Positions 11,353-56,889 of a DNA stretch of 64,000 nt are shown here, piece after piece. The notes under the pieces were generated by a model that was given only the letters and a program-made list of their open reading frames with translations, did not search any database and had not been told where the DNA came from. The translations under genes were made by a program, and so were the position numbers. Numbering within the stretch: position 1 is the stretch's first letter; every line of letters begins with the position of its first letter. Source of the DNA: Actinomycetes bacterium (GTDB lineage Bacteria; Actinomycetota; Thermoleophilia; BMS3ABIN01); NCBI GenBank assembly GCA_021791195.1, contig JAJYXB010000017.1:13422-77421 (forward strand). Direction: 5' to 3'.

Positions 11353-11562
11353 CTACCGCTTATGGTGTCTGGAACTGGCATCGAGATAGGCTTCGCGCAG
11401 TATCCCTCTGGCGACCAGTTCCGCATTGACGCCGTAGCTGCGTGAGGCCACAGATGCTCTTAGCCGCTCGACCCTGTGGGCTCGCTCAAGGCGATTTCGC
11501 AGCGACAGTTCCTGTACATCGATTGGCATCATGAGATCAATTTTCATGTCAACGAGAGCCAT
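11353..11562 (-). CDS. small ribbon-helix-helix (FitA/VapB-like) antitoxin-type protein, candidate
   Basis: 69-aa ORF in a 426-bp gap. AAGGA RBS 5 nt upstream of the ATG. ...LRASVASRSYGVNAELVARGILREA resembles the RHH helix pattern of FitA/VapB-type antitoxins. Confidence 0.35.
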   Translation of the reverse strand: MALVDMKIDLMMPIDVQELSLRNRLERAHRVERLRASVASRSYGVNAELVARGILREAYLDASSRHHKR

Positions 11563-11730
11563 TGAAATCCTTGTGTGGGCTTCTTCCCGCGGGCTCCCTT
11601 TTCCATTAATAATATCGGAGCCTGCCCGCACTTGATTGAATATTATTCTTTTCCGGCGGCCGTGGACTTTGGCCTCATCCTTGCTTGCAGTTACAATTAT
11701 TAATGGATTGCATGACCGGGATGATGACAT

Positions 11731-12468
11731 ATGGGTAGATTGAGGTTCGGCGGCCAGGCGGCTTCGCGGGCAGGAATCAGCTTTCTTGCCGGCCACGGGT
11801 TTGATTTTGCCGACCTGAACCTGAATGAGATGGACAAGATCCGCTCCGAGGAGCAGGAGATTCTCACGGGGGCGCACAAGGCGGGGATGTTCTTCGTCGC
11901 CCATGGCCCCGACCTGCGGGTTGATGATCCGGCAGGGCTTGCCAGGATTGAGGAATCGGTCAGGTACGCGGAGGCGTTCGCGCCGCGCACGATCACCATC
12001 CACCCCATCCTGTCGCCGATCTCGAAGGACAATACACCCGAAAGGATCAAACTCAAACTGCGCGAGATCGGCAGGCTGCAGGAGCTGGCTTCCGCTTACG
12101 GCGCCAGCATCGCCTGCGAGAACACCGCGGAGGAAGCCGTAGACATGCGGCAGCTGCTGGACGCTGTGCCGGGGGCCGTGCTGACGGTGGACATCGGGCA
12201 CAGCGAGCTTCTCAGCGAGCGGAACAAGTCGCTGGATTTCATCGAGGCATTCCCCGACCGCATTGGTCATATCCATATCCACGACAACGTGGGCGGCAAC
12301 ACATATTACGAGGATCTGCACCTGCCGCTGGGCGAGGGCAGGATCGACTTCGCCCCGATCATGCGGGCCCTGAGCGCCCTGCCCCAGGAAGTGACAGTCA
12401 CATTCGAGATGCCCCGGCAGAAAGCCTACGAAGGTCTCAACTGGCTGCGGGAGCGCAGCCTGGCCTGA
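11731..12468 (+). CDS. sugar phosphate isomerase/epimerase (xylose isomerase-like TIM barrel)
   Basis: ACEN..., HIHIHDN and GEGRIDF motifs typical of the AP-endonuclease-2 / xylose-isomerase-like TIM barrel family. 245 aa. Confidence 0.6.
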   Translation: MGRLRFGGQAASRAGISFLAGHGFDFADLNLNEMDKIRSEEQEILTGAHKAGMFFVAHGPDLRVDDPAGLARIEESVRYAEAFAPRTITIHPILSPISKDNTPERIKLKLREIGRLQELASAYGASIACENTAEEAVDMRQLLDAVPGAVLTVDIGHSELLSERNKSLDFIEAFPDRIGHIHIHDNVGGNTYYEDLHLPLGEGRIDFAPIMRALSALPQEVTVTFEMPRQKAYEGLNWLRERSLA

Positions 12469-12528
12469 CCCGGTTCCCTGGAGCTGCACGCCCCGGTCCG
12501 CAGGAACCCGAAAAGAAGGAAGACATTT

Positions 12529-13155
12529 ATGGGGACGACCAGCGTATACCGCGCCAAGAACAACATCTATCTGAATCTGACCAATCGCTGCTCTTCCGAT
12601 TGCAGCTTCTGCCTGGCCCGTTTTGCCGGCACCGTCTATGGCAGCGATCTCAGGCTTGAAAGCGAACCCGAAGTCGCAGACGTGCTGCGCGACCTGGAGT
12701 ACGAATTCCTGGAGGGTCCCGCCGACGAGGTGGTTTTCTGCGGCCTGGGTGAGCCGACGTTGCGGCTGGATGCGGTTTTGCAGATCACGGAATGGCTTCA
12801 CCTGAGGCGGATTCGCTCGCGACTTAACACCAACGGACAGGGCGCGCTCATCAATCCGGAGGTCGATGTCGCCGCCAAACTGGCGCGCGCCGGCCTGGAT
12901 GCAGTGTCGATCAGCCTTGTGGCCCATAATTCGGAAGTCTACAATCAGATATGCCGGCCGATTTTCAGCAAAGCGTTTCGCGCGGTGATCGGATTTGCCG
13001 AAGATTGCATCCGCGCGGGGATTGAAGTGACGCTGAGCGTAGTCGATCTTCCAGAGGTCGACATCGAGGCTTGCCGCAGCATCGCCGCCAGAATGGGTGC
13101 GGCATTCCGCGTGCGGCCGCTGATCACGGCCGGTTCCCAGGAGGTTAGCGCTTGA
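12529..13155 (+). CDS. minimal (~208 aa) radical SAM protein
   Basis: NLTNRCSSDCSFC = CX3CX2C [4Fe-4S]/SAM motif near the N-terminus. GLGEPTL glycine-rich SAM-binding motif. Confidence 0.6.
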   Translation: MGTTSVYRAKNNIYLNLTNRCSSDCSFCLARFAGTVYGSDLRLESEPEVADVLRDLEYEFLEGPADEVVFCGLGEPTLRLDAVLQITEWLHLRRIRSRLNTNGQGALINPEVDVAAKLARAGLDAVSISLVAHNSEVYNQICRPIFSKAFRAVIGFAEDCIRAGIEVTLSVVDLPEVDIEACRSIAARMGAAFRVRPLITAGSQEVSA

Positions 13156-13859
13156 ACGAGAACCGGACTCCCCGGATATTGCTGGTCGACGATGAGGAGG
13201 CCATCCAGAAGCTGCTGACATACCCCATGGAAAAAGAGGGGTATGAGATCGAACAGGCTCGCGACGGCGAGGAAGCGCTAGCCAAATTCCATGAGCACCA
13301 GTTCGATCTGATTGTGCTGGACATCATGCTTCCTGGCATGAGCGGCATCGATGTCTGCCGGCTAATAAGGGCCGAGAGCAACATCCCCATCATCATGCTC
13401 ACTGCCAAGTCCGACGAGTTCGACAAGGTTCTGGGCCTGGAGATCGGCGCCGACGACTATATCACCAAGCCGTTCAGCATCCGCGAGTTCCGCAGCCGGG
13501 TCAAGGCGCAGCTCAGGCGGGCGCAGATGAGCGTCGAGGCGCCGGCGGCGGCCAAGGAAATGGTCGAACTGGACAGCCTCACGATCGATTTTCTCAAGCG
13601 CAACGTATTTGTGAAAGACGAGAAAGTGGATTTGACCTACAAGGAATTCGAGCTGCTGAAGACGCTTGTGGGCCATCCCGGGCGCGTGTTCAGCCGGGAT
13701 TCGCTGCTGCACCTGGTGTGGGGGGATTCTGACTTTCGCGACCCGCGTACCGTGGATGTGCACATCCGCCACCTGCGCGAAAAGATCGAACCCGACGCCC
13801 ACGATCCGGAGTACATCTTTACCGTCCGCGGCGCCGGCTATAAGTTCCGGGACATGTAG
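13152..13859 (+). CDS. OmpR-family response regulator (WalR/CssR-like)
   Basis: Receiver domain LLVDDEE...DLIVLDIMLPGMSG. Winged-helix trans_reg_C domain ...TVRGAGYKF. TTG start overlaps the upstream stop. Confidence 0.85.
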   Translation: MNENRTPRILLVDDEEAIQKLLTYPMEKEGYEIEQARDGEEALAKFHEHQFDLIVLDIMLPGMSGIDVCRLIRAESNIPIIMLTAKSDEFDKVLGLEIGADDYITKPFSIREFRSRVKAQLRRAQMSVEAPAAAKEMVELDSLTIDFLKRNVFVKDEKVDLTYKEFELLKTLVGHPGRVFSRDSLLHLVWGDSDFRDPRTVDVHIRHLREKIEPDAHDPEYIFTVRGAGYKFRDM

Positions 13860-13860
13860 C

Positions 13861-15666
13861 ATGGCGTTCATCAGAAAAATCCGCACCGGCTTCCTGCACA
13901 AGATCCGTTTCAGCATCTCTGTGCGGCTCAGCCTGGTCTACTCGCTGGTTTTTGTGGTTGTCGTCGCGCTCATCTATCTGGCCGTAGTCCCGAAGCTGGA
14001 GAACAACCTCACCAGCCAGAAGGAATCCGAGCTGGGCAACTACGCCTCCCTGTTCTCCGAGAGCTTTCTCTCAGCCCAGAACCAGGGCGCCTCGCTGATC
14101 TATCTCGATCATCTTGTGCAGCAGTTCTCCGTGACGGCCGACGCACGCATCCTGTTCATGGACGGCTCCGGCAACCTGCTGGCGGATTCACAGAACGGCC
14201 AGTCTTTTGACTCCAATGATTATTCCATCTCAAAACGCGCCATCAACCACCGCGGTCCGCTCACGGATGTCGTCACCCAGAGCAACAACCAGAAATATGT
14301 GATGGCGGCGGTGCCGGTGGCCAGCTCCAACCGCATCGTCGGGGTCATCGTCGTTTCCCAGTCGCTCGCCGGCGTGCAGTCGGCGGTGTCGCTGGTGCAG
14401 CGGCTGCTGGGGATCGCGGCCGGCCTGGCGCTGGTGCTGGCGTTGATTTCCACCTACCTGGTGTCGCACTTCCTGGCGCGCCGCGTGCGGCGCATAGAAG
14501 CCGGCGCCGTCCAGATCGCCAAAGGCGACTTCGCTACGCGGGTGCCGGTGAAATCGCAGGATGAGCTGGGGCAGCTGGCGCGCACTTTCAACGACATGGG
14601 CGACAAGCTCGGGGCGGCCTTCCAGCAGATCGACGTGGAAAAGCGGCGCGCGAAGCTGCTGCTCGATGACCTCAGCGAAGGCGTGATCGGCATCGACACC
14701 AGCGGCAACATCATCGTCGCCAACCCGGCGGCGGAGAGTCTGCTGGGCAAGACGATCGAGCCGCCGGTGGCGTTGCAGGGATGCGTGCCGGAGGAGATTT
14801 TTGACCTGTGGGATTCCATGAGCGTCAACAGTCCCCAGCGCGAGGATACCTTCCTGCTCGGATCCGGGCAGGCGCTCGCGGTCCACAGCTCTTATCTCTC
14901 CGACCAGGCCGAACTGGCTTCGCTGCTGGTGCTCCGTGATGTAAGCCAGGAGGTGAAGCTGGAGCAGTCGCGCCGCGACTTCATCGCCAACGCCTCCCAC
15001 GAGCTGAAGACGCCGATCTTCTCGCTGGGCGGCTTCCTCGAGATCCTTCAGGATGAGGAAGTCGATGAGAACACCAAGCGGGAATTCGTGGCCACGATGC
15101 GCGAACAGGTTGACCGGCTGGCAAATCTTGCCAGAGATCTGCTCGACCTCTCGCGCATGGATTCCGGCGCGATGAGCGTTCAGGCCGGCAATGTGGAGCT
15201 GAATGAGGTGATCAGCTCCGTTGCCCGCGAATTCTCGGCGCGGCAGGTCAGCGGCGATGCCCGCGTGGACCTGGACGGTTTGCCTGCCGGGCTGACCGCC
15301 TGCTGTGACCGCGACCGGACGGTGCAGCTGGTGAGGATCCTGATCGATAACGCACTCAAGTATTCTCCGGCCAACACGAGGGTGCGGGTGTCTGGCAGAA
15401 ACGGCAATGGCGCATCGGTCAGCTTCACGGTCGCGGACGAAGGCCCGGGGATCCCCCATGATGAGATCGGCCGCATCTTCGAGCGTTTCTACCGCGGGCA
15501 TGGCGCCGGCCGCATCCGGGGCACCGGCCTCGGACTCTCGATCGCGCACGAGATCGTCCGGTTGATGAACGGTTCGATCAGTGTTGAATCGGCGGGTCGC
15601 GGCTCCTCCTTCACCGTGACCTTGCCGGCCAATGGAAAGGCGGCGCCGCGCCGGGTCGCGCATTAA
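13861..15666 (+). CDS. sensor histidine kinase (2 TM, HAMP, PAS-like, HisKA, HATPase_c)
   Basis: ATG at 13861 follows the RR stop. H-box ANASHELKTP, G-boxes DEGPGI / GTGLGLSI. Confidence 0.8.
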   Translation: MAFIRKIRTGFLHKIRFSISVRLSLVYSLVFVVVVALIYLAVVPKLENNLTSQKESELGNYASLFSESFLSAQNQGASLIYLDHLVQQFSVTADARILFMDGSGNLLADSQNGQSFDSNDYSISKRAINHRGPLTDVVTQSNNQKYVMAAVPVASSNRIVGVIVVSQSLAGVQSAVSLVQRLLGIAAGLALVLALISTYLVSHFLARRVRRIEAGAVQIAKGDFATRVPVKSQDELGQLARTFNDMGDKLGAAFQQIDVEKRRAKLLLDDLSEGVIGIDTSGNIIVANPAAESLLGKTIEPPVALQGCVPEEIFDLWDSMSVNSPQREDTFLLGSGQALAVHSSYLSDQAELASLLVLRDVSQEVKLEQSRRDFIANASHELKTPIFSLGGFLEILQDEEVDENTKREFVATMREQVDRLANLARDLLDLSRMDSGAMSVQAGNVELNEVISSVAREFSARQVSGDARVDLDGLPAGLTACCDRDRTVQLVRILIDNALKYSPANTRVRVSGRNGNGASVSFTVADEGPGIPHDEIGRIFERFYRGHGAGRIRGTGLGLSIAHEIVRLMNGSISVESAGRGSSFTVTLPANGKAAPRRVAH

Positions 15667-15831
15667 CACTTCTTAATCTCTCTTAACCCTATCTCAGTTG
15701 GCGTTTCTTATCGCTAAGGTATAATTTTTATACGATTGGGATCGAAAAAGACCCAATGTTTTGGCGGGAGAACCGCAATCTTGATATCGGGGGGTTGTCG
15801 CCTCTCGATATTCTTGATAGGAAGGGTGAAA

Positions 15832-17022
15832 ATGAGAAAAGGTTTATTGGACGTGATCAACAGCGCTGCTGCCGGTTTTGCCGGCGCGGCCGTGCTCCTG
15901 CTGCTGGCGTTTGCGCTGCACTGGGGCGGCCTGGGTCAGAATCAGCAGGCACAGCTGGCACAGACGCCGTCTGGCAACGACACGGGAACGTCCACGCAGC
16001 AGTTTACGGCGTCGTCTGGTCCTGGCGGCATCATGAATGCCGAGCAGATCTATCAGAAGTATGCCGACTCGGCAGTCCAGATCGTCTCGACATTTCCGGC
16101 GCCGAGCGGCGACTTCTTCCACAGCGCACAGAATGCCCAGCAGGGAATCGGATCCGGTTTTGTGGTCTCACCCGACGGTTACATTCTCACCAACGCGCAC
16201 GTCATCACCGATACCACCAGCGTGCAGACAGGCGGCCCCTCCACCAAGGCTTCCGATGTTGAGGTGAACTTCCGCAACGGCAAGAAAGTCAAGGCGCAGA
16301 TCGTCGGCTACGACCTCACCAGCAGCGATATCGCCCTCCTGAAGGTCGATCCCACGGGATTGAACCTGGTGCCCGCGGTGCTTGGCAATTCGGATCAGGT
16401 GCAGGTCGGTGAGCCGGTGGTGGCCATCGGCAGCCCGTTCGGCGTCTACGCCAGCTCGCTTACCTCGGGTGTCGTCAGTGCTGTCAACCGCACGGTCGAG
16501 TCGCCGCAGGTCGGCTTCACCATCAATAACGCCATCCAGACGGATGCCGCCATCAACAGTGGCAACAGCGGCGGCCCGCTGTTCAACGAGCGCGGCGAGG
16601 TCATCGGTCTGAATGAGCAGATCGCCACCACCAGCGGCGGTTCCGAGGGCGTGGGCTTCGCGGTGCCGATCAATACTGCCAAGAAGGTCAAGGACCAGAT
16701 CATTACGACCGGTTCGGTGGATTACGCCTTCATGGGAGTCGTCGGCCGGACGGTAGACAAGGGCATTGCCCAGCAGGATAATCTGCCGGTCGACAAGGGC
16801 GCGCTTATCACCGACGTGCAAGCGGGCAGCCCGGCGGATCAGGCAGGCATCCGGAAGAACGACATCATCATCTCCATCGATGGCCATGACATGAAAACGA
16901 TGGAAGATGTGACCGGTTACCTCGTGCAGAAGAAACCGGGCGACCAGGTCAAGGTTACGGTCAGGCGGGGCGACAAGACCCGGGACATCCAGGTTAAGCT
17001 GGGGAAGCGGCCGACCAGCTAG
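15832..17022 (+). CDS. htrA: trypsin-like serine protease HtrA/DegP with PDZ domain
   Basis: Catalytic triad context TNAHV, DIALL and GNSGGPL. C-terminal PDZ. N-terminal TM anchor. Confidence 0.85.
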   Translation: MRKGLLDVINSAAAGFAGAAVLLLLAFALHWGGLGQNQQAQLAQTPSGNDTGTSTQQFTASSGPGGIMNAEQIYQKYADSAVQIVSTFPAPSGDFFHSAQNAQQGIGSGFVVSPDGYILTNAHVITDTTSVQTGGPSTKASDVEVNFRNGKKVKAQIVGYDLTSSDIALLKVDPTGLNLVPAVLGNSDQVQVGEPVVAIGSPFGVYASSLTSGVVSAVNRTVESPQVGFTINNAIQTDAAINSGNSGGPLFNERGEVIGLNEQIATTSGGSEGVGFAVPINTAKKVKDQIITTGSVDYAFMGVVGRTVDKGIAQQDNLPVDKGALITDVQAGSPADQAGIRKNDIIISIDGHDMKTMEDVTGYLVQKKPGDQVKVTVRRGDKTRDIQVKLGKRPTS

Positions 17023-18236: not shown

Positions 18237-19205
18237 ATGAGCAGCAGTGCCAGCGACATCCAGCAGCTCGCGATCGAGCTTACCGGCGCCATCCGCGCCA
18301 GGATTCTGCCACAGATCGGCAGCGCCGACGCGCGCGTCCACGCGGGCACCGCTGTTGGCGGCGACGTCACCTTTGGCATCGATGAGGTTGCCGAGGAATT
18401 CCTGGTCAAGTTCCTGCGGGAGCGCGGCGCAAACGTGGCGATGTACTCCGAGGACAAGGGCCTGCTGACGTTCGGTGAGCCCGAGCATGTGCTGATCATC
18501 GATCCGGTGGACGGCACGCGTCCGGCCGCAGCAGGGCTGGAGGGCGCGATGGTCTCCGTTGCGGTGGCGGATCTCAGGGATGAGCCCGCCATGGGCGACG
18601 TCTCGTTCGGCTGCCTGCAAGAGATCAAGAGCGGCGCTTTGTTCACCGCTGTCCGCGGGGAGGGAGTGTCCATCACCGGCGCAGATGGCGAACCTGCTGC
18701 CGTGATCCTTTCCGAAAACACCGACCTGGCGCGGCTGTTCTGGACGATCGGCTTCCGCGGCCGTCCGGCGCGGGCGCTGATCGAGGCGCTCGGCGATCTG
18801 GTCGATGCCTCCTCCGTGGACGGCGCCGTCTTCGATCTGGGCAGCGCCACTTTTTCCATCACCCGCATTCTCACTGGCCAGCTGGACGCCTACGTCGATG
18901 TGGGGCCGCGCATGATCGAGGAGGTTCCGGAGGTACGGCCGCTGTTCGAGCGCGTTGGCAAGGGGGCCATCCTCAACAATTCCCCCCACGACCTGGCCGC
19001 GGTCGGGCTCATCGCCCGCGAGGCGGGCGCCTTCTTTGGCGATGGCTGGGGCAATTCGCTGTCGGAGCGGTTGCTGCTGGGATCCGAGCACGAGTTTCAA
19101 ATGTCCTGCATTGCGGCGTCAAATGGCGAACTCGCGGGCCGCATCGTCGCCGCGGTGGACGAAGGCATCGACAAGCTCAGGGCTGCGTTTGGAAAGAGCC
19201 GTTAA
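18237..19205 (+). CDS. inositol monophosphatase / FBPase-family phosphatase
   Basis: IIDPVDGT metal-binding motif and C-terminal HDLAA motif. Confidence 0.7.
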   Translation: MSSSASDIQQLAIELTGAIRARILPQIGSADARVHAGTAVGGDVTFGIDEVAEEFLVKFLRERGANVAMYSEDKGLLTFGEPEHVLIIDPVDGTRPAAAGLEGAMVSVAVADLRDEPAMGDVSFGCLQEIKSGALFTAVRGEGVSITGADGEPAAVILSENTDLARLFWTIGFRGRPARALIEALGDLVDASSVDGAVFDLGSATFSITRILTGQLDAYVDVGPRMIEEVPEVRPLFERVGKGAILNNSPHDLAAVGLIAREAGAFFGDGWGNSLSERLLLGSEHEFQMSCIAASNGELAGRIVAAVDEGIDKLRAAFGKSR

Positions 19206-19258
19206 CGGGCAGCAACCACTCACAAGCGGCAAAACACAGCCTGTTTGGATAGCCTTTC

Positions 19259-20329
19259 ATGACCGACACGACGATCACGCTGCATGAGGGACTGCTATAT
19301 GATGCGCGCCCGGATGGAAAGGTTCAGTGCCACGTATGCCCGCGGCTGTGCATTATCGCTGAAGGCCGCATGGGAATCTGCAAGACCAGGAAGAACGTAG
19401 GCGGCAAGTGCTATACGCTTATCTACGGCAAGGTCTGCTCGGTGGCCGCGGACCCCATCGAGAAGAAACCGCTGTTTCATTTCCACCCCGGCACCTCAGT
19501 GCTGTCGCTGGGCACCCTCGGCTGCAACATGCGCTGCATCCACTGCCAGAACTGGCAGATCGCCCATGCCGACGCGCTCGAGGATAGCGCGCAGCTGCGT
19601 GAGCTGCCGGCAGGGAAGCTGCCGCAGATCGCCGTCAACAATGATTGCCAGGGGGTTGCCTGGACTTACAACGAGCCGACGATCTGGCTGGAGTATGCCA
19701 TCGACGGCGCCAGGGCCTGCCACGCGCACGACCCCCGGCTTTACACCGTTTTTGTCACCAACGGATACATCACGCCGGAGTCGCTGAATCTGGTCGCCCC
19801 CCTGCTGGATGCATATCGAGTTGACATCAAGGGCTTCAGGCCCGAGACTTACAAGTTCCTGGCAAAAATCAGCGACGTGGCGCCGATCTTCAGGGCGGCG
19901 GTGGATGCGAAGCACAGGTATGGCTGCCATGTCGAGATAGTCACGAACGTGATTCCGACGGTCAATGACGACGAGGAGACCCTGCGCTCGATTGCGGCGT
20001 GGATCGCCAGGGACCTGGGTGACAAGACGCCCTGGCATGTGACGCGCTTCTATCCGTATCTGGAACTCGATTACCTGCCGCCGACACCGATTGATACGCT
20101 CGAGCGGGCGCTGGAGATCGGCCGCGAGGAAGGGCTGAAGTTCGTCTATATCGGCAATGTGCCGGGTCATCCGGCGGAAAACACTGTTTGCCCAAATTGT
20201 AAACGAGTGGTAATTCGCCGCGACGGTTACGAGATCGGGAAGCTGGAGGTCCGGGAAGGTTACTGCGCGTTTTGCGGTGAAGATTTAAACGTTGTGCAGG
20301 CTCCGGGCAAGGAGAAAGCGAAGATATAA
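19259..20329 (+). CDS. AmmeMemoRadiSam-system radical SAM enzyme (PflA-like)
   Basis: N-terminal VQCHVCPRLC, CNMRCIHCQNW radical SAM motif, C-terminal CPNC...CAFCG cluster. Domain order typical of the AmmeMemoRadiSam rSAM subfamily. Confidence 0.65.
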   Translation: MTDTTITLHEGLLYDARPDGKVQCHVCPRLCIIAEGRMGICKTRKNVGGKCYTLIYGKVCSVAADPIEKKPLFHFHPGTSVLSLGTLGCNMRCIHCQNWQIAHADALEDSAQLRELPAGKLPQIAVNNDCQGVAWTYNEPTIWLEYAIDGARACHAHDPRLYTVFVTNGYITPESLNLVAPLLDAYRVDIKGFRPETYKFLAKISDVAPIFRAAVDAKHRYGCHVEIVTNVIPTVNDDEETLRSIAAWIARDLGDKTPWHVTRFYPYLELDYLPPTPIDTLERALEIGREEGLKFVYIGNVPGHPAENTVCPNCKRVVIRRDGYEIGKLEVREGYCAFCGEDLNVVQAPGKEKAKI

Positions 20330-29397: not shown

Positions 29398-30050
29398 TGT
29401 CATATCCCTTGCTGAAAGACGTTTCCGGTGCGGTTGCCGCGCCGGCCGCCGACCCCGCCCTGTTCGACCACGAGCTGGTGGGCCTGCTGCTTGACAGGCC
29501 GGGCGGTGAACCGCTGGCAGTACTTTCAGAGCGCATTTTCAGCCTGTTCGCCGGCAGGGCGCTCTCGCCGGTGCCTTCCGAGGAGATCCGCGGCTGCGGC
29601 CTTTCCGGGCCGGAGGCCGACCGCCTGCTGGCGGCGATCGAGCTGGCCAAGAGGCTGTTGTGGCCTGACGATGGCCGCATCTGCATCCGCTCGCCCCAGG
29701 ATGTCTGCCGGGCGGCGGCCGCGATCCGCTCCGCCGGCAAGGAGCACTTCCTCGCGCTCTATCTCGATGCGCGCAACGTGCTCATCCATCAGGAAGTGGT
29801 GTCGATCGGCAGCCTGAACGCCAACATCGTGCACCCGCGGGAGGTATTCCGGCCGGCGATCGCCACCGGCGCCGCCGCGGTCATCCTTGCCCATAATCAC
29901 CCGTCGGGGGATATCTCGCCCAGCCAGGAAGATCTGAGCCTGACTGCCCGCATGGTCGATGCCGGCCGCCTGCTCGGCATAGAGGTGCTCGACCATGTCG
30001 TCATTTCCAGCAGCCGGTTTATCAGCTTCCGCAGCGAGTCATACATCTGA
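29398..30050 (+). CDS. radC: RadC-like JAB/MPN domain protein
   Basis: C-terminal JAMM motif ILAHNHPSGDISPSQED. Start taken at internal ATG MSYPLL; TTG at 29340 is also possible. Confidence 0.75.
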
Positions 30051-30083
30051 TATCCTTTACAAAGATGAAAAAATAGTCCCATT

Positions 30084-30386
30084 TGTGGAAAAACCGCTTG
30101 TCTCCTTGCGGCAACTTTTTTACCGCCGCCGTTTCCGGGCCTGCAATCCCGCCATAAACATTATTCATTAAGCTGTTTTCAAAAATGACGTGTTTTGCGG
30201 GCAGGTTGCTCAATGAAAGTGTTTTTGACTTTCTTTGTCGGGTTTTTTTGGCAAGGAGTTTTTAACCGTGCAAATCCTTTTTGGGACACGCCGGCGTGAA
30301 GTTATCCACACTTTCCACAGTTTTGCATAGGCCCGATTCGCGGCACCGGGGTGATGTTGACTTTGTGGAAAAAATGACTGTATACT
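30084..30386. promoter_or_regulatory. DnaA-box cluster, AT-rich stretch and sigma70-like promoter upstream of rpmH
   Basis: Perfect TTATCCACA at ~30302-30310 followed by CTTTCCACA. Two TGTGGAAAA boxes (~30084-30092, ~30364-30372). AT-rich run ~30170-30300. TTGACT(~30357)-18 nt-TATACT(~30381) promoter with a DnaA box in the spacer. Confidence 0.5.
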
Positions 30387-30417
30387 GTCAGGTCGTTAAT
30401 ATGTAAAGGAGATTCCT

Positions 30418-30552
30418 GTGAAGCGGACCTATCAGCCGAACACGAGGAAAAGGAAGAAAACACACGGTTTCCGGATCCGGATGAGCACGAAGGCCGGCCG
30501 CCGTTTGCTCAAGCGCCGCCGCGACAAGGGCCGGAAGAGGTTATCGGCATAG
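30418..30552 (+). CDS. rpmH: 50S ribosomal protein L34
   Basis: [47 protein letters not shown] start, AAAGGAG RBS. Confidence 0.9.
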
Positions 30553-30569
30553 GAACCGGCACGTTTTCG

Positions 30570-30935
30570 GTGGACAAGAAGCACCGTCTCACCAGGTCGG
30601 CGGATTTCCAGCGGGTCTACCGCCAGGGGAAATCCGTGGCCGGCCGGCACATGGTCCTATATTACTTTGAAAGGCCCACGGAGAGTCCGGCTGATCCCCG
30701 GCTGGGGCTCACGGTATCGAAGAAGATCGGCGTGGCCGTGGTGCGCAACCGTGTCAAGCGGGTGCTGAAAGAGGCCTTCCATCAGTTTCAGGAAGATGTC
30801 GCGCCGGGCTACGATTATGTAATTATTGCCCGTTCCGGGCTGGCGGAGTATGTAGAAAAAAGCCAGTTTGAAGCCATCGTGACCGCGATGGCGGACCTGT
30901 TCCGGCGGGCTGACCTAATCCAGGAAGCAGAATAA
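30570..30935 (+). CDS. rnpA: ribonuclease P protein component
   Basis: ...HRLTRSADFQRVYRQGK...NRVKRVLKEAF... RnpA signature. GTG start. Follows rpmH. Confidence 0.9.
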   Translation: MDKKHRLTRSADFQRVYRQGKSVAGRHMVLYYFERPTESPADPRLGLTVSKKIGVAVVRNRVKRVLKEAFHQFQEDVAPGYDYVIIARSGLAEYVEKSQFEAIVTAMADLFRRADLIQEAE

Positions 30936-30936
30936 C

Positions 30937-31158
30937 TTGAAGCGAATACCAATCTTGCTGATCGGCTTTTATCAGAAGCTGATTTCACCGCTGTTTCCCC
31001 AACGTTGCAAATATCATCCCTCCTGCTCGAACTATGCAATCGATGCTTTCAGGGAATGGGGTTTTTTCCGCGGCCTGGCGCTGTCAGTGTGGCGCGTCTT
31101 GCGCTGCAATCCCTTCTCGCTGGGCGGCTTTGACCCGGTCAGGAAGAGGCAGCCGTGA
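30937..31158 (+). CDS. yidD: membrane protein insertion efficiency factor YidD
   Basis: CKYHPSCSNYAIDA...RCNPFSLGGFDPV. Confidence 0.85.
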   Translation: MKRIPILLIGFYQKLISPLFPQRCKYHPSCSNYAIDAFREWGFFRGLALSVWRVLRCNPFSLGGFDPVRKRQP

Positions 31159-31883
31159 CCGACGCTCTTGCTTTCCTGATCAATCCGCTTCGGCAGATAC
31201 TTTTCTTCCTGCATAACAACCTCGGCCTGTCGTATGCGCTGGGGATCATCGTCATGACCATCGCGCTGAGGCTCATCCTCACGCCCCTGACCATCAAGCA
31301 ATATACGGCGATGCGGGCGATGCAGAAGATCCAGCCGCTGATGAAAGAGCTGCAGGCGAAGTTCAAGGACGACCGGCAAAAGCTGAACGAAGAGACGATG
31401 AAGCTTTACCGGGAGCACAAGGTAAATCCTTTCGGCTCCTGCCTGCCGATGCTGATCCAGCTGCCGATCACCATGGCGCTCTATTACATGATCCGCAGCC
31501 AGCCTTTCACCACCGACAACTCATTCCTCTGGATCAGCAACATCAACGACCCTGACAGGATCCTGCTGGTCTTCTATGTGCTCAGCCAGCTGGGCTCCAG
31601 CCTGATGCTCACCACCACCACCGACAAGTCCCAGCGCATGCTGATGCTGATCATGCCAGTGGCCATCGGTTTCCTGGTGATTGGATTCCCGGCCGGGGCG
31701 CTGCTGTTCTGGGTGACGTCCAATCTGCTGATGCTGGGCCAGCAGCTGATCGTGCGGGAAGTAATCAAGGGCAGGGAGGCTCGTGAAGAGCTGGCGATTG
31801 AGCCGGCTCCTGAGCCACCTCAGCCAAAGACCGGAGGCAAGCCGCATGCAGGAAAACCAAAATCAAAAAAGAAACGCCGCTGA
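31155..31883 (+). CDS. yidC: membrane protein insertase YidC (short Gram-positive type)
   Basis: 242 aa, 5 TM helices, ...LTPLTIKQY...MQKIQPLMKELQAKFKDD... YidC/Oxa1 core. Lys-rich tail. Confidence 0.85.
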   Translation: MTDALAFLINPLRQILFFLHNNLGLSYALGIIVMTIALRLILTPLTIKQYTAMRAMQKIQPLMKELQAKFKDDRQKLNEETMKLYREHKVNPFGSCLPMLIQLPITMALYYMIRSQPFTTDNSFLWISNINDPDRILLVFYVLSQLGSSLMLTTTTDKSQRMLMLIMPVAIGFLVIGFPAGALLFWVTSNLLMLGQQLIVREVIKGREAREELAIEPAPEPPQPKTGGKPHAGKPKSKKKRR

Positions 31884-32628
31884 GGCCAAGGTAATCGGCA
31901 GCGGCAAGACGGTCGTGGAAGCCCAGGCTGACGCGCTGGCGAAGCTGGAGGCGGTGGCTGGACCCTTCCGCAAGGACGAAGTCGAGCTGATCGTCCTCTC
32001 AGAGGGTTCGAAAGGCTTTTTGGGGATGGGTTCCGCCATGGCGGAGGTCGAGGCGTCCCTGCCTGGCCCCGAAGCGAGCCAGCCGGAACCGGAGTTCTTC
32101 GACGAGGTCCTGGCCGACGAGCCTCAGCCTTTCATGACCGAGCGGGCGGAGAAGGAAGAGGATTTTCAGCCGGCCGGCGCGGAGGCCGAAGCCCGGCTGG
32201 AGGAATTCCTGCGGCAGATTCTGGAAGGGATCGGCCTGGAGGCCAGCGTGGTGGTGGCGGATGAGTACGAGGCGCTGGTGGGCAACATCACCGGGGAAGA
32301 CCTCGGGCTGCTCATCGGCCGTCACGGCCAGACCATAGATGCCATCCAGTATCTGGCCAACATCGCCGTGTTCCGGGGAACTCCCGATCGCAAGCGGGTA
32401 GTTGTCGACGCCGAAGACTACCGCGAACGCCGCGCCGAGGTACTGAAATCCCTGGCCGAACGGGGCGCCAGCGAGGTTTTGAGCGGCAAGCCGCAATATG
32501 AACTGAAACCGATGAGCGCCGCCGAGCGGAGGGTCATCCACATGTATCTGCAGGACCGCAAAGGCATCGATACCATCAGCGAGGGCAGCGACCCATTCCG
32601 CCGGGTGATCATCACCCGCTCAGCGTAA
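31846..32628 (+). CDS. jag: Jag/KhpB-like RNA-binding protein (KH + R3H domains)
   Basis: C-terminal R3H motif ...SAAERRVIHMYLQ...DTISEGSDPFRRVII. Position after yidC. Confidence 0.7.
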   Translation: MQENQNQKRNAAEAKVIGSGKTVVEAQADALAKLEAVAGPFRKDEVELIVLSEGSKGFLGMGSAMAEVEASLPGPEASQPEPEFFDEVLADEPQPFMTERAEKEEDFQPAGAEAEARLEEFLRQILEGIGLEASVVVADEYEALVGNITGEDLGLLIGRHGQTIDAIQYLANIAVFRGTPDRKRVVVDAEDYRERRAEVLKSLAERGASEVLSGKPQYELKPMSAAERRVIHMYLQDRKGIDTISEGSDPFRRVIITRSA

Positions 32629-44158: not shown

Positions 44159-45600
44159 CTAATTGCCAGCCTCGCCATGATTGCGGGCCGGTTTGAGCGG
44201 ATTTACCGACTTGAGCGGCTCAAGATAATTGCGGCCGTCCGCGAATTCCCGGGCTGATTTGAGGATGCGCCGCAGGTGGCTGAAGGTCAGCCGGCGGGTG
44301 GCCAGTCCCTTGATCAGCGGCACGGCCCGCTGCACCAGGACGCCGGAATTTACATATGCCGTGCGGTAGAGGCTGGCGAATTCCTTGTAGAACTCGGCCG
44401 GATCCAGCTTGGTTGGCACTACCGAGTGGAGAAAGTCGTACAGCTCGTAATTCCTGGTGACGATCTTGCCTTCGATCTCCCTGAAGAGGTCGGTGCCCGG
44501 CAGCGGCGTCAGCACGGTGAACTGGGGGACGTTGACGCCGTGGCTGGTAACGTAGTTGCGCAGCCGCTCGAACTCCTGGTGGCCGTAATCCGGGTTGATG
44601 ATGAAGGCGCCCGTGACCGATACGTCCTGTCCCCGGATGATCTTCAGCGCTGCGTCATTGGTGGCGACGCTGTTCTTCTTGTTCACCGCCTTGAGCTCTT
44701 CCTCGTCCAGGCTTTCAAAACCGATGAAAACGTGCGAAAGGCCGACCTTGTGCCATTTGGCGATGATCTCGGGATGCTTGACGATGGTATCGCTGCGCGC
44801 CTGAAAAGAATAGTGCTTCTTGATGCCGCGCGCCATGAGCAGATCGGCGATCGCATCCGCGCGCTTGACGCTCATCAGGAAATTGTCATCGGTGATCAGG
44901 ACAAACTTCTCTTTCAGCCGCGCCAGCTCCTCGACCACCCGTTCGGGGCTCTTGGTGCGGCAGCGTCCCTCGAAGAAGGCCCAGACGCTGCAGAAATTGC
45001 AGCGGTGCGGGCAGCCGCGGGCGGTCTCGATGGTCGCCAGCGGCTTCCAGAAATTGAAGAAGTAGCGCCGCCGCCGTCTCTTCGGCACGAGGTCCCGGGC
45101 AGGAAACGGCAAATCATCCATGTTGTCAACAGGCTTGCGCGCTCCGGTGGAGATCTGGCCATCCGCGGTGTTGAGCATCAGTCCCGGGACGCTGTTGAGG
45201 TCGCCGCCGTCCCGCAAAGTGTTGATCAGTTCAGGGGCGCCGAATTCGCCTTCGCCGATGACGATGGCGTCGATCGCCTCACCGCTGAAGTCAGAAGGAT
45301 TGAGTGAGGCATGCAGCCCGCCGATGAACACGAACGGGGCGCCATTGTCCTTGGCGACCTGCGCGATTTTCTGCGTGCGGAAGACATCGATGGTGAATGA
45401 GCAGCTGATGCCGACAGCATCGGGGCGGAAATCAGCCAGCGCCGGTTCCAGGTCGCCGTCGACACGCATGTCATGGATGCGCACCTCATGGTCCGGGACG
45501 AGCGCGCCAGCGACCATCTCCAGTCCGAGCGGCTCGACCAGGGCTACCTTGGTAAAGCCGGGCTTGCCAAACTGCGGTGGTTGTACCAGAAGAACTTTCA
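44159..45600 (-). CDS. B12-binding-domain radical SAM protein
   Basis: N-terminal Rossmann-like cobalamin-binding domain (MKVLLVQPP...AVGISCSF...FIGGLHAS). Radical SAM motif ARGCPHRCNFCSVW. ~480 aa. Confidence 0.75.
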
Positions 45601-45694
45601 TAGGTAAAAATTTCCCGATTTCAATGAAAAGCATCCTATTAGATTGGGTCAAAAAGTGCAATGCGGCGCTACCTGGCCGCATGGGCTCCGAACG

Positions 45695-47317: not shown

Positions 47318-47394
47318 TGGCGCCCCGAGAAGGATTCGAACCTTCGACCTACCGCTTAGGAGGCGGTCGCTCTCATCCTCTGAGCTATCGGGGC
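47318..47394 (-). tRNA. tRNA-Arg (anticodon CCT)
   Basis: Reverse complement folds as GCCCCGA-TAGCTCAGAGGAT...ACCGC-CTCCTAA-GCGGT...GGTTCGAATCC...TCGGGGC-G-CCA with encoded CCA. Anticodon loop CT-CCT-AA. Confidence 0.85.
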
Positions 47395-53737: not shown

Positions 53738-55186
53738 TTACACGGCAACGAATGCGCCCCTGAGTTCTGCATGAAGGGGACGATGCGCTAACAGATATTT
53801 TCGCATCGCATCAATAATCCGTTCAGACTGATTTTCGCGAATGCGGCCGTATTGCCGAGGGACCCCTTGCGGAGTGACGAATGCCGCTGTATAGTTCCGG
53901 CCGGGCTGAACCTCCTCATTGCCTGCAAACAGTTTTTGAATACGGTGTCCAGGCGGATTCTCTATCTTGAAGTAGACATTAAGACCGAGACAGCGCTTGA
54001 CATATCCTCCCATTTGCTGATACGGATCGCATGAAAACGTCCTCTCAAGATTCTCCTCCAGCATTGTCCTGATTTCCTCCCCGGTCAGCTCTACTGTGGA
54101 GACGGGCGGGTTCATGGGAATGATATTGTAAAGGTCATTCAAGGTTATCTGTCCCGGGACTACTGGTGCGCCGTAGCGCCAGCCATTTGAAAACGCCAAT
54201 TGCGCCCCCGTGTTTTCAAGCAGGGCCTGAAGGAGGAAGTTGTCCATGGTAGTTTCCAGAGTTGTGCCCCTGTTGAGCGCTGTGACAGTTTCACCGACAA
54301 CCTCCGAGAGATCATTCTTATAGGGTGCGAGTGCCCGTCTTACCGGTTCATCCACTGTGGGGTCAGGTTGCGTGGCTGCTTCGACCTCAATCAACCGGTG
54401 CCGGTAATCCATGATCTGGCCGTCTGCCACCTCCAGGTCCAGGCGACCCAAAAAAGAACCATGGCAGCCTGACTGTATAACAATAGTTTTCCCATTGAGA
54501 ACCGGTTTATAAAGACGGTTGTGGGTGTGGCCGCTGAGACAAATATCGATGCCGTGCACCTCGGACAGAAGCTTCATCTCCTGAGGGAACCCGAGGTGCG
54601 AGAGCAAGACAATGAAGTCCACCTTTTCCCGGGCGCGCAGCACATCGATAACTGGCGGGAGTTCATCCTTTCCCAGGGTAAAGGATATGCCTTCGCTGTA
54701 GGAAGGCGGCATGGTCTTGTCCACAATATTTGAGGCTATCCCCACAAGGCCGATCCGTAATCCGCCGGTCTCTTTTACGACATACGCCGGAAAGACCGGC
54801 TTGCTTGTCTCCTGATCGTAGACATTGTTTGCCAGCATCGGATATTCAAGCTCGGCGACCCGCTGCTGGAACACCTTCGGGCCATAAGCAAATTCCCAGT
54901 GAGCGGTCATGGCATCAAGTCCCAACGAATTCAAAACAGGGATCAAAGCCTGTCCCTGGGTGTTCAGGGCAGGATAGGTGCCATGCATGGTATCGCCGCA
55001 GTCGCAAAAGAGAATCCGTCCCCGGCTCTCAGCTCGAATCTGTTTTACGATCGTGGCGATGCGAGCGTAACCACCCACGGGACGGTATACAGCGCGGCCG
55101 CCCTGCCAGAACATTTCCTGATGTAAATCAAAATATGCGTGGCTGTCGTTCATTTGGACTATTGTGAGCTTGTTGCTCCCACTCAT
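53738..55186 (-). CDS. bifunctional metallophosphatase/5'-nucleotidase family protein
   Basis: MSGSNKLTIVQMNDSHAYFD..., GDTMHG and GHTHN motifs. Start at internal ATG with AGGAGGAGAA RBS. No signal peptide. Confidence 0.75.
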   Translation of the reverse strand: MSGSNKLTIVQMNDSHAYFDLHQEMFWQGGRAVYRPVGGYARIATIVKQIRAESRGRILFCDCGDTMHGTYPALNTQGQALIPVLNSLGLDAMTAHWEFAYGPKVFQQRVAELEYPMLANNVYDQETSKPVFPAYVVKETGGLRIGLVGIASNIVDKTMPPSYSEGISFTLGKDELPPVIDVLRAREKVDFIVLLSHLGFPQEMKLLSEVHGIDICLSGHTHNRLYKPVLNGKTIVIQSGCHGSFLGRLDLEVADGQIMDYRHRLIEVEAATQPDPTVDEPVRRALAPYKNDLSEVVGETVTALNRGTTLETTMDNFLLQALLENTGAQLAFSNGWRYGAPVVPGQITLNDLYNIIPMNPPVSTVELTGEEIRTMLEENLERTFSCDPYQQMGGYVKRCLGLNVYFKIENPPGHRIQKLFAGNEEVQPGRNYTAAFVTPQGVPRQYGRIRENQSERIIDAMRKYLLAHRPLHAELRGAFVAV

Positions 55187-55350
55187 TCTTCTCCTCCCTT
55201 CCGTTATTCCATTGTATCTTTTTGTGCGGATTCCACCGCCACAAACCAGGAACCAGACATGCGCAGCATTCAGACATTGCGTCGCCCCGTCTCCATCTCC
55301 TGCCTCTCGACTGGCAGGCAAGAAATTGGCGTGCCCTGAGAAAATATTGG

Positions 55351-56673
55351 CTAAGAAGCCTCCCGCTCTTTCAGGGGCTCCGCGAGCAGGCCTGGCCGCA
55401 AGAGCAGGAAGAACGCGTAGGCTAGCAACACGGCCGCGCCGGCCAAAACCGCCGAATCGGGGCCGATGACGCCACCGAGCCAGCCGAAACCGAGCGATGA
55501 GAACGGTTGCATGCCCATGAAACACAGGACGAATAGAGCCATGACGCGACCGCGCAGCCGGGGCGGGGCGGCCCACTGCACCCCGGTCATCGCGGTCGCC
55601 GAACCGGTGAGTAACGAGGCGCCTGCCAGCGACACCAGTCCCACGGACAGGTAATAGTTGCGGGAAAGCGAGAATGCCAGCAGCGCTGCTCCCATGCCCA
55701 GCACGGCGGCGCGGATGAGCAGTCCGCGGCGGACGCGCGGCGGCAGGCTGGCGACAAACAGGGCGCCGATCACAGCTCCCAGCCCGCTTGCCCCCATCAG
55801 CACCGCATAACCGGTTGCGCCCTGCCCAAGGACCTGCGCCGCGATCACCGGCATGAGCGTGATGTACGGCATGCCGAACAACGATAGCATCAAAACGCTG
55901 ATCAGCAGCCAGGCAACCTGCCGGTTCTCGCGTGTGTATTTCAAACCGGCGGTCAGCGTACTGAGCGCACCGCCGCAGCTACGCGCATGCTGCTCCTGCC
56001 GCGGATGGATCAGCGCCAGAGCCGCTATCACGAACAGGAAGCTGATGGCGTTGACGTAGAAGACCTCGGCGGCGCCGTAACGCGCGAAAACGAGGCCGCC
56101 CAGCAATGGACCGAGCAGGCGGGCGCCGTTGAACTGGGCCGCGTTGAGCGCGACGGCGTTAAGCAGCGATTTCTTCGGCACGATATCCGGCAACATCGCC
56201 TGCCAGGCGGGGAAAACGAATGCCGTGATGACGCCGCCGAACAGAACCAGCCCGCCGATTAATACGATTGTGATGGCGTTTACCTGGGTGAGCCGCGCCA
56301 GCAGGAGCGCCTGAATCATCAGCAGGGTTTGAGCCACGATGATCAGTCGTTTACGGTTGAGGCGATCAGCGAACAGTCCCGCGAAAAGCGTCAGCAGCGT
56401 CGTCGGCAGGAAGTTGAGGAAGTTGATGACGCCCAGGGCGGCGGAGGGGTTGCCTGCCTTGGTGATGTCATAGACGACCCAGCCGACAGCGACCGTCTGC
56501 ATCCAGGTGCCGATGTTGGAGATCAGCGCGCCGCTCCAGAAGTAGCGGTAATCCCGGTGCCGGAATGATTTGAACGGACTCCTCTCGCGCCCCCGGACAG
56601 CTTCGGGACAGGTTTCAACCGTTGCTTCAATCGAATAGGTATCCTTATCGGGCTCACTCTCCGAATTGACCAT
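55351..56673 (-). CDS. MFS transporter
   Basis: 12-TM major facilitator. Start at internal ATG MVNSE. Confidence 0.75.
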   Translation of the reverse strand: MVNSESEPDKDTYSIEATVETCPEAVRGRERSPFKSFRHRDYRYFWSGALISNIGTWMQTVAVGWVVYDITKAGNPSAALGVINFLNFLPTTLLTLFAGLFADRLNRKRLIIVAQTLLMIQALLLARLTQVNAITIVLIGGLVLFGGVITAFVFPAWQAMLPDIVPKKSLLNAVALNAAQFNGARLLGPLLGGLVFARYGAAEVFYVNAISFLFVIAALALIHPRQEQHARSCGGALSTLTAGLKYTRENRQVAWLLISVLMLSLFGMPYITLMPVIAAQVLGQGATGYAVLMGASGLGAVIGALFVASLPPRVRRGLLIRAAVLGMGAALLAFSLSRNYYLSVGLVSLAGASLLTGSATAMTGVQWAAPPRLRGRVMALFVLCFMGMQPFSSLGFGWLGGVIGPDSAVLAGAAVLLAYAFFLLLRPGLLAEPLKEREAS

Positions 56674-56889
56674 GCCGTGCGTCCCATCCGTTTCAGGAAA
56701 TGTTATTGTCTGAAAGCTCAAAAGCCTGCGGGAACCGAACTTTAAAATGTTGGGGATATCCGCTGTACAAGAATAAAATGTCCTTATTAATCCGGGGCCA
56801 AACATGCGCGCTATTTTGTCATATTGCTAAATAGTGTTATAGTCCAAGCCGCAGGAACGCAGAAGCAACCGTTTTTCGATTTTGCCGGC

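Follow-up and report, generated by a model that had tools for sequence, protein, structure and literature searches.

What might a small radical SAM enzyme be doing between a TIM-barrel protein and a stress two-component system? The question is raised by a locus in the window, by which we mean the whole 64,000-nucleotide stretch of DNA that was analyzed, where two open reading frames (ORFs) lie on the forward strand at 11,731–12,468 and 12,529–13,155, separated by 60 bp and encoding a barrel protein of 245 residues and a radical SAM protein (rSAM) of 208 residues. The initial annotation described a xylose-isomerase-like barrel of the PF01261 fold, followed by a minimal rSAM with a half-barrel core and a CX3CX2C motif near residues 20–27, the stop codon of which overlaps the start of an OmpR/kinase/htrA module, and it considered the pairing uncharacterized. 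As detailed below, that layout is borne out in each of these respects. Its functional reading, in which the barrel is a sugar-phosphate isomerase/epimerase and the rSAM acts on a sugar phosphate, fares poorly. Both ORFs are real genes rather than chance ORFs, because independent assemblies contain many homologues that are arranged likewise. An antisense ORF of 622 codons (11,353–13,221) spans both genes and is a high-GC artefact save for its last 70 codons, which belong to a FlgM-like gene.

The operon appears to begin at a promoter-like site, TTGGCC-17-TACAAT (11,669–11,697, forward strand), which was located by consensus scan approximately 35 bp upstream of the barrel gene and is probably the operon promoter, judging from its sequence; a TTTGGC −35 element with a TAGAAT or TACAAT −10 element precedes the barrel (TIM) gene in all nine TIM-bearing loci compared. 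An AAGGAAG ribosome-binding site lies upstream of the rSAM ATG, and the rSAM stop TGA (13,153–13,155) overlaps the TTG start of the response regulator (13,152–13,154) in the tetranucleotide TTGA, with GGAGG 8 nt before the TTG. The regulator (13,152–13,859, forward strand, 235 aa) is of the OmpR/PhoB type, with PF00072 and PF00486 domains, and its best NCBIfam models, YycF/WalR, RpaB, PhoB and MtrA, all score under their cutoffs. It is followed on the same strand by a HAMP/HisKA/HATPase_c sensor histidine kinase (13,861–15,666), recognized as an ORF whose orthologues carry PF00672, PF00512 and PF02518, and whose start is presumably the ATG 1 bp past the regulator stop, given the length of its 590–600 aa orthologues. 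An HtrA/DegP-type serine protease with a PDZ domain comes next (15,736–17,022, forward strand; PF13365, PF00089 and PF13180); its true start is probably the ATG at 15,832, it scores 306 bits against TIGR02037, under the cutoff, and the consensus scan places a separate promoter-like site, TTGGCG-16-TATAAT, before it at 15,698–15,725. The WalRK-HtrC and MprAB-PepD operons likewise combine a co-oriented OmpR-type regulator, HAMP kinase and HtrA protease, although the regulator here falls under every equivalog cutoff, and we know of no described operon of that type that starts with a radical SAM gene. The barrel gene is surrounded by Ddl, the FlgM-like gene, the rSAM gene and the genes of the two-component system. 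No Rfam match to a riboswitch or other RNA element was found near the locus. Elsewhere, an inositol-phosphatase (InosP) gene forms its own block with an AmmeMemoRadiSam rSAM and is probably unrelated to the pair discussed here. Membership in anti-phage defense systems (pVip, Qat) and a phage origin were considered and set aside, as PADLOC gave the rSAM only 25–27 bits to pVip and the barrel 17 bits, neither of which is significant, and a search for viral relatives found none.

The rSAM belongs to the NCBIfam family TIGR04038, “TatD family nuclease-associated radical SAM protein”, as the initial annotation had suggested it might, with 184.4 bits against a curated cutoff of 129.7 and residues 6–198 covering model positions 3–191 of 192. 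It also matches PF04055 (56.1 bits, cutoff 29.5). The cluster motif (C21, C25, C28) and the SAM motif GLGEP (residues 72–76) are invariant in the rSAM alignment and sit together in the single domain of approximately 200 residues that characterizes TIGR04038. An AF2 model (pLDDT 89) depicts a bare partial-barrel core with no additional domain, and neither a precursor peptide, a SPASM domain nor a second cluster was found. The protein scores 167.3 bits against the sister family TIGR04100, for which the cutoff is 262. Two other identities raised by the initial annotation were rejected, namely QueE (22.2 bits to queE_Cx14CxxC, cutoff 240) and the anaerobic RNR activase, whose NrdG model is absent among the 25 families listed; the nearest sequence families are MoaA, NirJ and the tungsten-cofactor maturase, and the model of the rSAM lacks the C-terminal cluster domain of MoaA. 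Relatives occur in at least 587 GTDB species, both bacterial and archaeal. Our literature search for TIGR04038, TIGR04100 and TatD-associated radical SAM proteins found no paper, nor did it find biochemical data on TIGR04038 or on the MJ1311-type proteins to which the barrel belongs; the only functional clue for TIGR04038 so far is its “TatD-associated” name.

That name is well earned in other bacteria. Outside the Thermoleophilia, TatD (PF01026, 247 bits) lies directly upstream of the rSAM and in the same orientation in 22 of 26 bacterial loci, four of which carry a fusion of the two, a single ORF of 457–474 aa that matches both TIGR00010 and TIGR04038. In Firmicutes, this adjacency falls within the housekeeping metG-tatD-ksgA cluster. 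TatD adjacency or fusion is no part of the HMM rule that defines the family, and the rSAM of the window has neither: a TatD HMM finds nothing anywhere in the 64 kb, and none of the Thermoleophilia loci has a TatD gene within 8 kb. In sequence, the window rSAM shares its single-domain architecture and its invariant residues with the TatD-adjacent or fused members; what differs is that its upstream slot is taken by a PF01261 barrel and its downstream slot by a response regulator with an overlapping start. Approximately 30 residues are invariant across 86 rSAM sequences from three lineages, basic residues R20, R98, R143, R194 and R196 are conserved family-wide, and a neighbor-joining tree joins the Thermoleophilia clade and the bacterial clade linked to TatD as sisters. 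From this invariance and this sister relationship we infer that the rSAM has one function across lineages. Most archaeal neighborhoods are heterogeneous, and in the Bathyarchaeia the assortment of neighbors (CTP synthase, ADH, TBP, MFS, GT2 and others) rules out a common partner. Four Bathyarchaeia loci place the rSAM beside a PA0069/Rv2578c-type rSAM and DNA polymerase IV, which may be a faint additional hint of a role in nucleic acid metabolism.

If the rSAM is a family member in unfamiliar company, the identity of that company becomes the central issue. The barrel protein is a member of PF01261 (AP_endonuc_2; 75.1 bits, cutoff 31.1), and its AF2 model (pLDDT 94.9) has the eight strand/helix units of a (beta/alpha)8 barrel, with Foldseek TM-scores of 0.73–0.83 to structures of the family. 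Its nearest solved relative is MJ1311 of Methanocaldococcus jannaschii (3WQO), matched over the full length in a profile search of the PDB (E=2.9e-35; profile positions 4–241 on chain residues 17–278, with the metal-site motifs paired) and giving the best TM-score, 0.83. Both proteins carry HxH.HDN, DxHLxxGEG and DIGH motifs and nine ligands of the endonuclease IV (EndoIV) type; together with the full-length profile similarity, these shared motifs place the barrel in the MJ1311-like subfamily, even though identity in the structural alignment is approximately 19% and the barrel is bacterial, some 30 residues shorter and linked to an rSAM. MJ1311 is named a “D-tagatose 3-epimerase-like protein” and is also listed as a predicted EndoIV homologue of M. 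jannaschii (PMC2770678).

The metal site argues for phosphoester chemistry. In an hhalign comparison with E. coli Nfo (its sequence confirmed identical to 1QTW), barrel residues H58, H91, E130, D154, H157, H182, D195, H197 and E226 align with H69, H109, E145, D179, H182, H216, D229, H231 and E261, in that order, and are invariant in 122 family members, with the exception of H197 (121 of 122). All nine trinuclear-zinc ligands of endonuclease IV thus have invariant counterparts, which makes it likely that the barrel hydrolyzes phosphodiesters by three-metal chemistry. Five of these His/Asp residues are additional ligands that round out the three-metal site and are unneeded by ketose epimerases. 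Since MJ1311 is its nearest relative and the nine ligands are invariant, the barrel is a probable phosphodiesterase or phosphoesterase in preference to a sugar isomerase. This does not make it an endonuclease IV. The two belong to one superfamily, but the hhalign probability is only 79% and the barrel is 40 residues shorter; the nfo NCBIfam model gives no match at E<=0.01, EndoIV chains reach 20–39 bits in the profile search of the PDB compared with 125 for MJ1311, and none appears among the top 50 Foldseek matches, where the barrel is nearer to ketose epimerases and MJ1311. The residues that follow H69 in Nfo, DSYL, are replaced by GPDL after H58 and are not conserved in the barrel; among them is Y72, a DNA-contacting residue of Nfo. 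The likeness to ketose epimerases is a superfamily-level feature of the fold.

Within the Thermoleophilia, the barrel and the rSAM are linked to different degrees. Throughout one subclade (11 of 11 loci) the TIM gene immediately precedes the rSAM, on the same strand at spacings of −10 to +60 bp, with stop/start overlaps in several, and this arrangement is stable across approximately 62–100% rSAM identity; it is found in none of the 29 loci of the sister clade, nor next to the rSAM in any lineage outside the nearest clade, archaeal loci included. The adjacency in relatives that the initial annotation had looked for consequently holds among the closest genomes and fails beyond them. Because the gene is missing from the sister clade and the archaeal loci, the rSAM evidently does not need it nearby. 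A wider TIM–rSAM pairing was also rejected, as five loci of remote TIM relatives (31–37% identity) lack a TIGR04038 gene and sit in unrelated contexts. The most conserved linkage in the class is that of the rSAM to the regulator, which is wider than the TIM–rSAM pairing and, like the TatD link in other phyla, was missed by the initial annotation: a −4 overlap occurs in 28 of 36 Thermoleophilia loci and a gap of at most 60 bp in 35 of 36, the junction is kept over 56–100% identity, and most loci that extend far enough past the kinase also have an HtrA homologue there.

Taken together, the locus is a variant of the known but uncharacterized TIGR04038 module, and what is new is an EndoIV-type barrel in the TatD slot: directly upstream, on the same strand and behind a conserved promoter-like site. 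TatD enzymes (E. coli TatD, human TATDN1/3, YtkR4) are metal-dependent TIM-barrel phosphodiesterases, as the barrel probably is, yet they belong to a different superfamily (amidohydrolase-type PF01026 as opposed to PF01261), and the equivalence we propose is one of function rather than homology. Published work describes TatD enzymes as 3′-5′ exonucleases and “a family of ancient AP endonucleases” (PMC4176340; PMC10085689), and the activities of an AP endonuclease and a 3′-5′ exonuclease are common to TatD and EndoIV, with YtkR5, a “xylose isomerase-like” barrel, having both (bioRxiv 10.1101/2024.09.16.613364). We tentatively favor a lineage-specific TIGR04038 module in which an MJ1311/EndoIV-type metallo-phosphoesterase replaces TatD and acts with the rSAM on a phosphate-bearing substrate. 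The rSAM would cleave SAM to yield a 5′-deoxyadenosyl radical, which would take a hydrogen from that substrate. Since the partners linked to the rSAM are nucleases, cutting at abasic sites and trimming 3′ ends, the substrate is most likely a nucleic acid or nucleotide; the barrel would then hydrolyze one of its phosphodiesters, or one in the product, as TatD may do elsewhere. By analogy, the module probably acts on a nucleic acid or other phosphodiester substrate, and because an EndoIV-like barrel fills the place of TatD beside the rSAM, damaged nucleic acid is probably what the pair processes. Expressed together with the HtrA quality-control protease and a stress two-component system, the pair would form a damage-response operon. 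A bolder version, to which we attach little probability, holds that TIGR04038, a widespread rSAM of anaerobes, takes damaged DNA or RNA as its direct substrate and passes an abasic or 3′-blocked intermediate to an AP-endonuclease-type barrel, this being TatD in most bacteria and the EndoIV-type MJ1311 protein in the TIM-bearing Thermoleophilia clade.

Other arrangements of the same evidence must be weighed against this. The barrel might merely share a transcript with the rSAM and not a pathway, as an independent MJ1311-like enzyme (e.g., a stand-alone AP endonuclease/3′-phosphoesterase or other phosphodiesterase) inserted or retained in one subclade at the head of an older rSAM–regulator–kinase–HtrA operon. 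Its presence in 11 loci of one clade and in none of the 29 of the sister clade would be expected on such an account, as would the unrelated contexts of its remote relatives and the solitary rSAM of Bathyarchaeia; we nonetheless regard mere juxtaposition as unlikely, given that the barrel has exactly the slot and orientation of TatD, overlaps the rSAM start in several loci and keeps its place over the range of rSAM identity noted above, and that published work gives TatD and barrels of the EndoIV type the same two activities. The pair might instead serve a small-molecule pathway, in which the rSAM modifies a cofactor or nucleotide that contains a phosphodiester (one derived from pterin/GTP, resembling a cobamide or bearing a cyclic phosphate, for instance), with TatD or the barrel serving as a phosphodiesterase for small molecules. 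CbiR, a cobamide-remodelling phosphodiesterase by which the superfamily includes enzymes of this kind (PMC7733943), provides the best NCBIfam model for the barrel (NF041277, 48.8 bits over 204 residues), and the kinship of the rSAM to MoaA, NirJ and the tungsten-cofactor maturase, along with five conserved arginines that would suit a phosphate-bearing ligand, points the same way. The CbiR score is, however, below half of the cutoff of 105, which excludes CbiR itself, and neither cobamide, molybdopterin nor other cofactor genes were found adjacent; TatD family members characterized so far are nucleases, and the missing MoaA C-terminal domain also speaks against a pathway that we judge to be quite improbable. 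One structural point does favor it, and counts against the reading we prefer: in the 2014 account of 3WQO by Uechi et al., MJ1311 reportedly lacks the DNA-binding groove of EndoIV and has a narrowed cleft.

The downstream genes invite a different emphasis, with the rSAM modifying some component of the envelope, a protein that is secreted or sits in the membrane, or the signal that the kinase senses, the barrel as accessory and the TatD link as secondary. The tight rSAM–regulator junction throughout the class, and the regulator–kinase–HtrA series that follows the rSAM in most Thermoleophilia loci, are what such an envelope-stress module would predict. Yet none of 48 loci outside the Thermoleophilia has a regulator, kinase or HtrA beside the rSAM, while the active site is invariant there; the lack of a precursor peptide, SPASM domain or second cluster, and the TatD fusions, which argue for a cytoplasmic role on nucleic acid or phosphoesters, make an envelope role very improbable in our estimation. 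The carbohydrate model of the initial annotation, in which a sugar-phosphate isomerase/epimerase barrel works with a minimal rSAM, is scarcely credible in light of the three-metal site. All isomerase/epimerase equivalogs of NCBIfam score under 19 bits against cutoffs above 270 (the best, fructoselysine 3-epimerase, reaches 18.6 bits against 305), sugar-metabolism genes are absent from the operon, and lineages without an MJ1311-type barrel, where the rSAM has TatD or nothing as its partner, keep its active site invariant.

Such a module, with an EndoIV-type barrel in the place of TatD, matters beyond this one clade. TIGR04038 is distributed among hundreds of bacterial and archaeal species, and its vague association with TatD can now be replaced with a testable hypothesis, namely that the rSAM cooperates with a partner that cleaves phosphodiesters, probably in nucleic acid. 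Approximately 4,000 MJ1311-type proteins currently annotated as “sugar phosphate isomerase/epimerase” are probable phosphoesterases. The Thermoleophilia, for their part, possess an operon, found across the class, whose radical SAM gene runs into the start of a stress two-component system. Should damaged DNA or RNA prove to be the substrate of the rSAM, the module would join spore photoproduct lyase as a second radical-SAM system for nucleic-acid repair and would provide the first function for the MJ1311 family.

The gene arrangement described in the initial annotation is present in the window, where ORFs, Pfam matches and the sequence itself confirm the TIM-barrel/radical SAM (rSAM) pair, the CX3CX2C motif, the overlap with a response regulator (RR) and the OmpR-type regulator, histidine kinase (HK) and HtrA genes downstream. 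The TIM-barrel ORF (11731-12468, + strand; 245 aa; PF01261 at 75.1 bits) and the rSAM ORF (12529-13155, + strand; 208 aa; PF04055 at 56.1 bits) are co-oriented and lie 60 bp apart. The cysteine motif of the rSAM falls at C21/C25/C28, its ATG is preceded by an AAGGAAG ribosome-binding site, and its stop codon (TGA) overlaps the start codon (TTG) of the OmpR-type RR (TTGA), upstream of which stands GGAGG. A HAMP histidine kinase (13861-15666) and then an HtrA/PDZ protease (ending at 17022) follow the RR. A long antisense ORF (11353-13221) was rejected as a high-GC artefact. The window as a whole has a GC content of 62%, dipping from about 0.62 to 0.54-0.58 at 30001-32000, which adjoins yidC (31155-31883), and at 54001-58000, which spans a 5'-nucleotidase/metallophosphoesterase gene (53738-55576). 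It also encodes a B12-binding radical SAM protein (44159-45682, - strand; PF02310 and PF04055) and a tRNA (47321-47394, - strand), the sole Rfam match at gathering threshold in the window.

Neighbourhoods were mapped in 80 genome and 16 metagenome loci. An NJ tree places the Thermoleophilia rSAMs in one clade split into two sister groups, and the proposed adjacency of the pair in related genomes holds in one of these but not in the other. In the window's group (11 loci; rSAM identity 62-100%), the order is Ddl, a small opposite-strand FlgM-like gene, TIM, rSAM, RR, HK and HtrA, with -10 to +60 bp between TIM stop and rSAM start. None of the 29 loci of the sister group has a TIM gene within 8 kb of the rSAM; the upstream region instead carries an AmmeMemoRadiSam rSAM and a divergently oriented gene of the inositol-phosphatase family. 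The rSAM stop and RR start overlap in 28 of 36 Thermoleophilia loci, and the gap is at most 60 bp in 35. A block in which a 356-aa radical SAM gene follows an inositol-monophosphatase-family gene lies no more than a few kb from the rSAM-RR-HK-HtrA cluster in both clades: downstream in the window (18237-20329), divergent and upstream in the sister clade (L002-L037). In sister-clade locus L037, the orthologue of the radical SAM gene of this block encodes an AmmeMemoRadiSam rSAM (TIGR04337, 324 bits).

A promoter-like site upstream of TIM (11669-11697) has a -35/-10 pattern that recurs in the nine loci compared, and no convincing terminator was found inside the cluster. From these observations and the overlapping junctions, we infer co-transcription of TIM, rSAM, the two-component genes and HtrA. 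The protease gene may in addition have a transcript separate from that operon, since htrA is immediately preceded by a strong promoter-like site of its own (15698-15725; TTGGCG-16-TATAAT, 10/12 matches). Members of the TIM-less clade have in common the motif CATTCTACCCTGCTATACT, some 60-130 bp before rSAM, which reads as an extended -10 on the + strand (TGCTATACT) overlapping a - strand GGTAGAAT; the two would make a compact pair of divergent promoters. Between ddl and TIM, a 70-aa ORF (11353-11565, - strand) matches FlgM, the anti-sigma-28 factor (PF04316), barely over the cutoff (25.7 versus 25 bits). Upstream of this ORF, on its strand, CTCCGATAT (about 11609-11617) resembles the sigma-28/SigD -10 element GCCGATAT, and the + strand motif ATATCGGAG recurs in most TIM-bearing loci compared.

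In bacteria outside Thermoleophilia, the gene beside the rSAM (family TIGR04038) is commonly tatD. Of 26 such loci (Clostridia/Christensenellales, Ignavibacteria, Nitrospirota and others), 22 encode TatD (PF01026, 247 bits) immediately upstream on the same strand, most commonly in the order metG-tatD-rSAM-ksgA. Four loci, from Ignavibacteria, Nitrospirota and two unclassified bacteria, encode both as a single protein of 457-474 aa (PF01026 and PF04055; L067 3794-5167, L084 7161-8585, L051 7224-8603 and L073 854-2233), and the L067 fusion scores to TIGR00010 and TIGR04038. On the evidence of these natural fusions, TIGR04038 very probably works with TatD. Neither TatD nor the barrel is present in about 22 Bathyarchaeia rSAM loci, where neighbours vary; in four (L050 6128-8104, L042, L054 and L059) the rSAM adjoins a PA0069/Rv2578c-type rSAM and DNA polymerase IV, a pair inverted in one locus. 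The 64-kb window contains no TatD. Remote barrel relatives had no adjacent TIGR04038-type rSAM in any of five other loci; in L091 (5001-9314) and L092 (5001-9675), an opposite-strand TatD gene is found some 3 kb away from such a relative (36-37% identity), with aldehyde:ferredoxin oxidoreductase genes in between, possibly by coincidence.

Across 86 sequences representing all three lineage groups, some 30 residues of the rSAM are invariant, including Y7, Y14, N16, T18, the cluster cysteines, E46-P47, GxGEP, R98, T101-N102-G103 (N102 in 84 of 86), S129-L130, Y138, F156 and R196, and R20, R143 and R194 are nearly always basic. The chemistry of the rSAM is therefore very likely the same whatever gene adjoins it, which rules out a substrate particular to the barrel-bearing clade.

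The source annotation of the barrel is "sugar phosphate isomerase/epimerase", the reading also adopted initially, yet every NCBIfam isomerase/epimerase equivalog scores below 19 bits. The top NCBIfam match is CbiR, a cobamide phosphodiesterase, with 48.8 bits where the cutoff is 105. Against the PDB, the barrel family profile matches 3WQO (MJ1311) full-length (E=2.9e-35), whereas ketose epimerase and endonuclease IV (EndoIV) chains reach about 1e-9 or weaker; the AF2 model (pLDDT 94.9) likewise has its top TM-score, 0.83, to 3WQO. An hhalign comparison with E. coli Nfo (query 100% identical to 1QTW) pairs nine barrel:Nfo residues: H58:H69, H91:H109, E130:E145, D154:D179, H157:H182, H182:H216, D195:D229, H197:H231 and E226:E261. 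The Nfo residues are the nine trinuclear-zinc ligands of EndoIV, reportedly described in the 1999 work of Hosfield et al.; four of them are named in a preprint (bioRxiv 10.1101/2024.09.16.613364). Across 69 close family members and 53 remote ones (30-40% identity), none of the nine positions varies apart from one exception, at H197. Ketose epimerases use only four of the nine, and the five further ligands argue for three-metal phosphoester hydrolysis by the barrel. The MJ1311 structure paper is said to describe nine retained ligands and no DNA groove. In the literature, MJ1311 is listed as the homologue of EndoIV predicted for M. jannaschii (PMC2770678), and CbiR shows that the superfamily also includes small-molecule phosphodiesterases (PMC7733943). 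On the profile, TM-score, ligand and NCBIfam results, we file the barrel as MJ1311-like, probably working as an EndoIV-type metallo-phosphoesterase, and not demonstrably an Nfo.

In E. coli, TatD has 3'-5' exonuclease activity and is tied to peroxide-damage repair (PMC4176340). The human and E. coli enzymes also act as AP endonucleases and are described as "a family of ancient AP endonucleases" (PMC10085689). According to a preprint (bioRxiv 10.1101/2024.09.16.613364), both activities are common to TatD and EndoIV. The same work shows AP endonuclease/exonuclease activity for YtkR5, a "xylose isomerase-like" barrel whose EndoIV site is incomplete and which is found together with a TatD homologue. 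Given these shared activities and the YtkR5 precedent, the best reading is that the barrel, being of EndoIV type and placed where TatD is encoded elsewhere, has replaced the phosphoesterase partner without being homologous to it. The rSAM would then carry out radical hydrogen abstraction on a phosphate-bearing substrate, probably nucleic acid, in which the barrel would cleave a phosphodiester. That the module is a radical SAM nucleic-acid repair system is, in our estimation, improbable. The barrel could instead be an independent enzyme merely sharing a transcript with the rSAM, in keeping with the lack of a barrel gene in the sister clade. Alternatively, the actual substrate may be a small phosphodiester, as for CbiR, which fits the MoaA-like sequence neighbours of the rSAM. 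The class-wide link between rSAM and regulator could also reflect a role of the rSAM in envelope stress. A sugar isomerase is the least supported model, given the isomerase scores and the nine EndoIV-type ligands.

The TIM-rSAM pair is thus genuine and conserved, and its rSAM belongs to a named, uncharacterised family, the "TatD family nuclease-associated radical SAM protein". The existing annotation of its partner is wrong; a more fitting description is an MJ1311/EndoIV-type metallo-phosphoesterase that would take the place of TatD.
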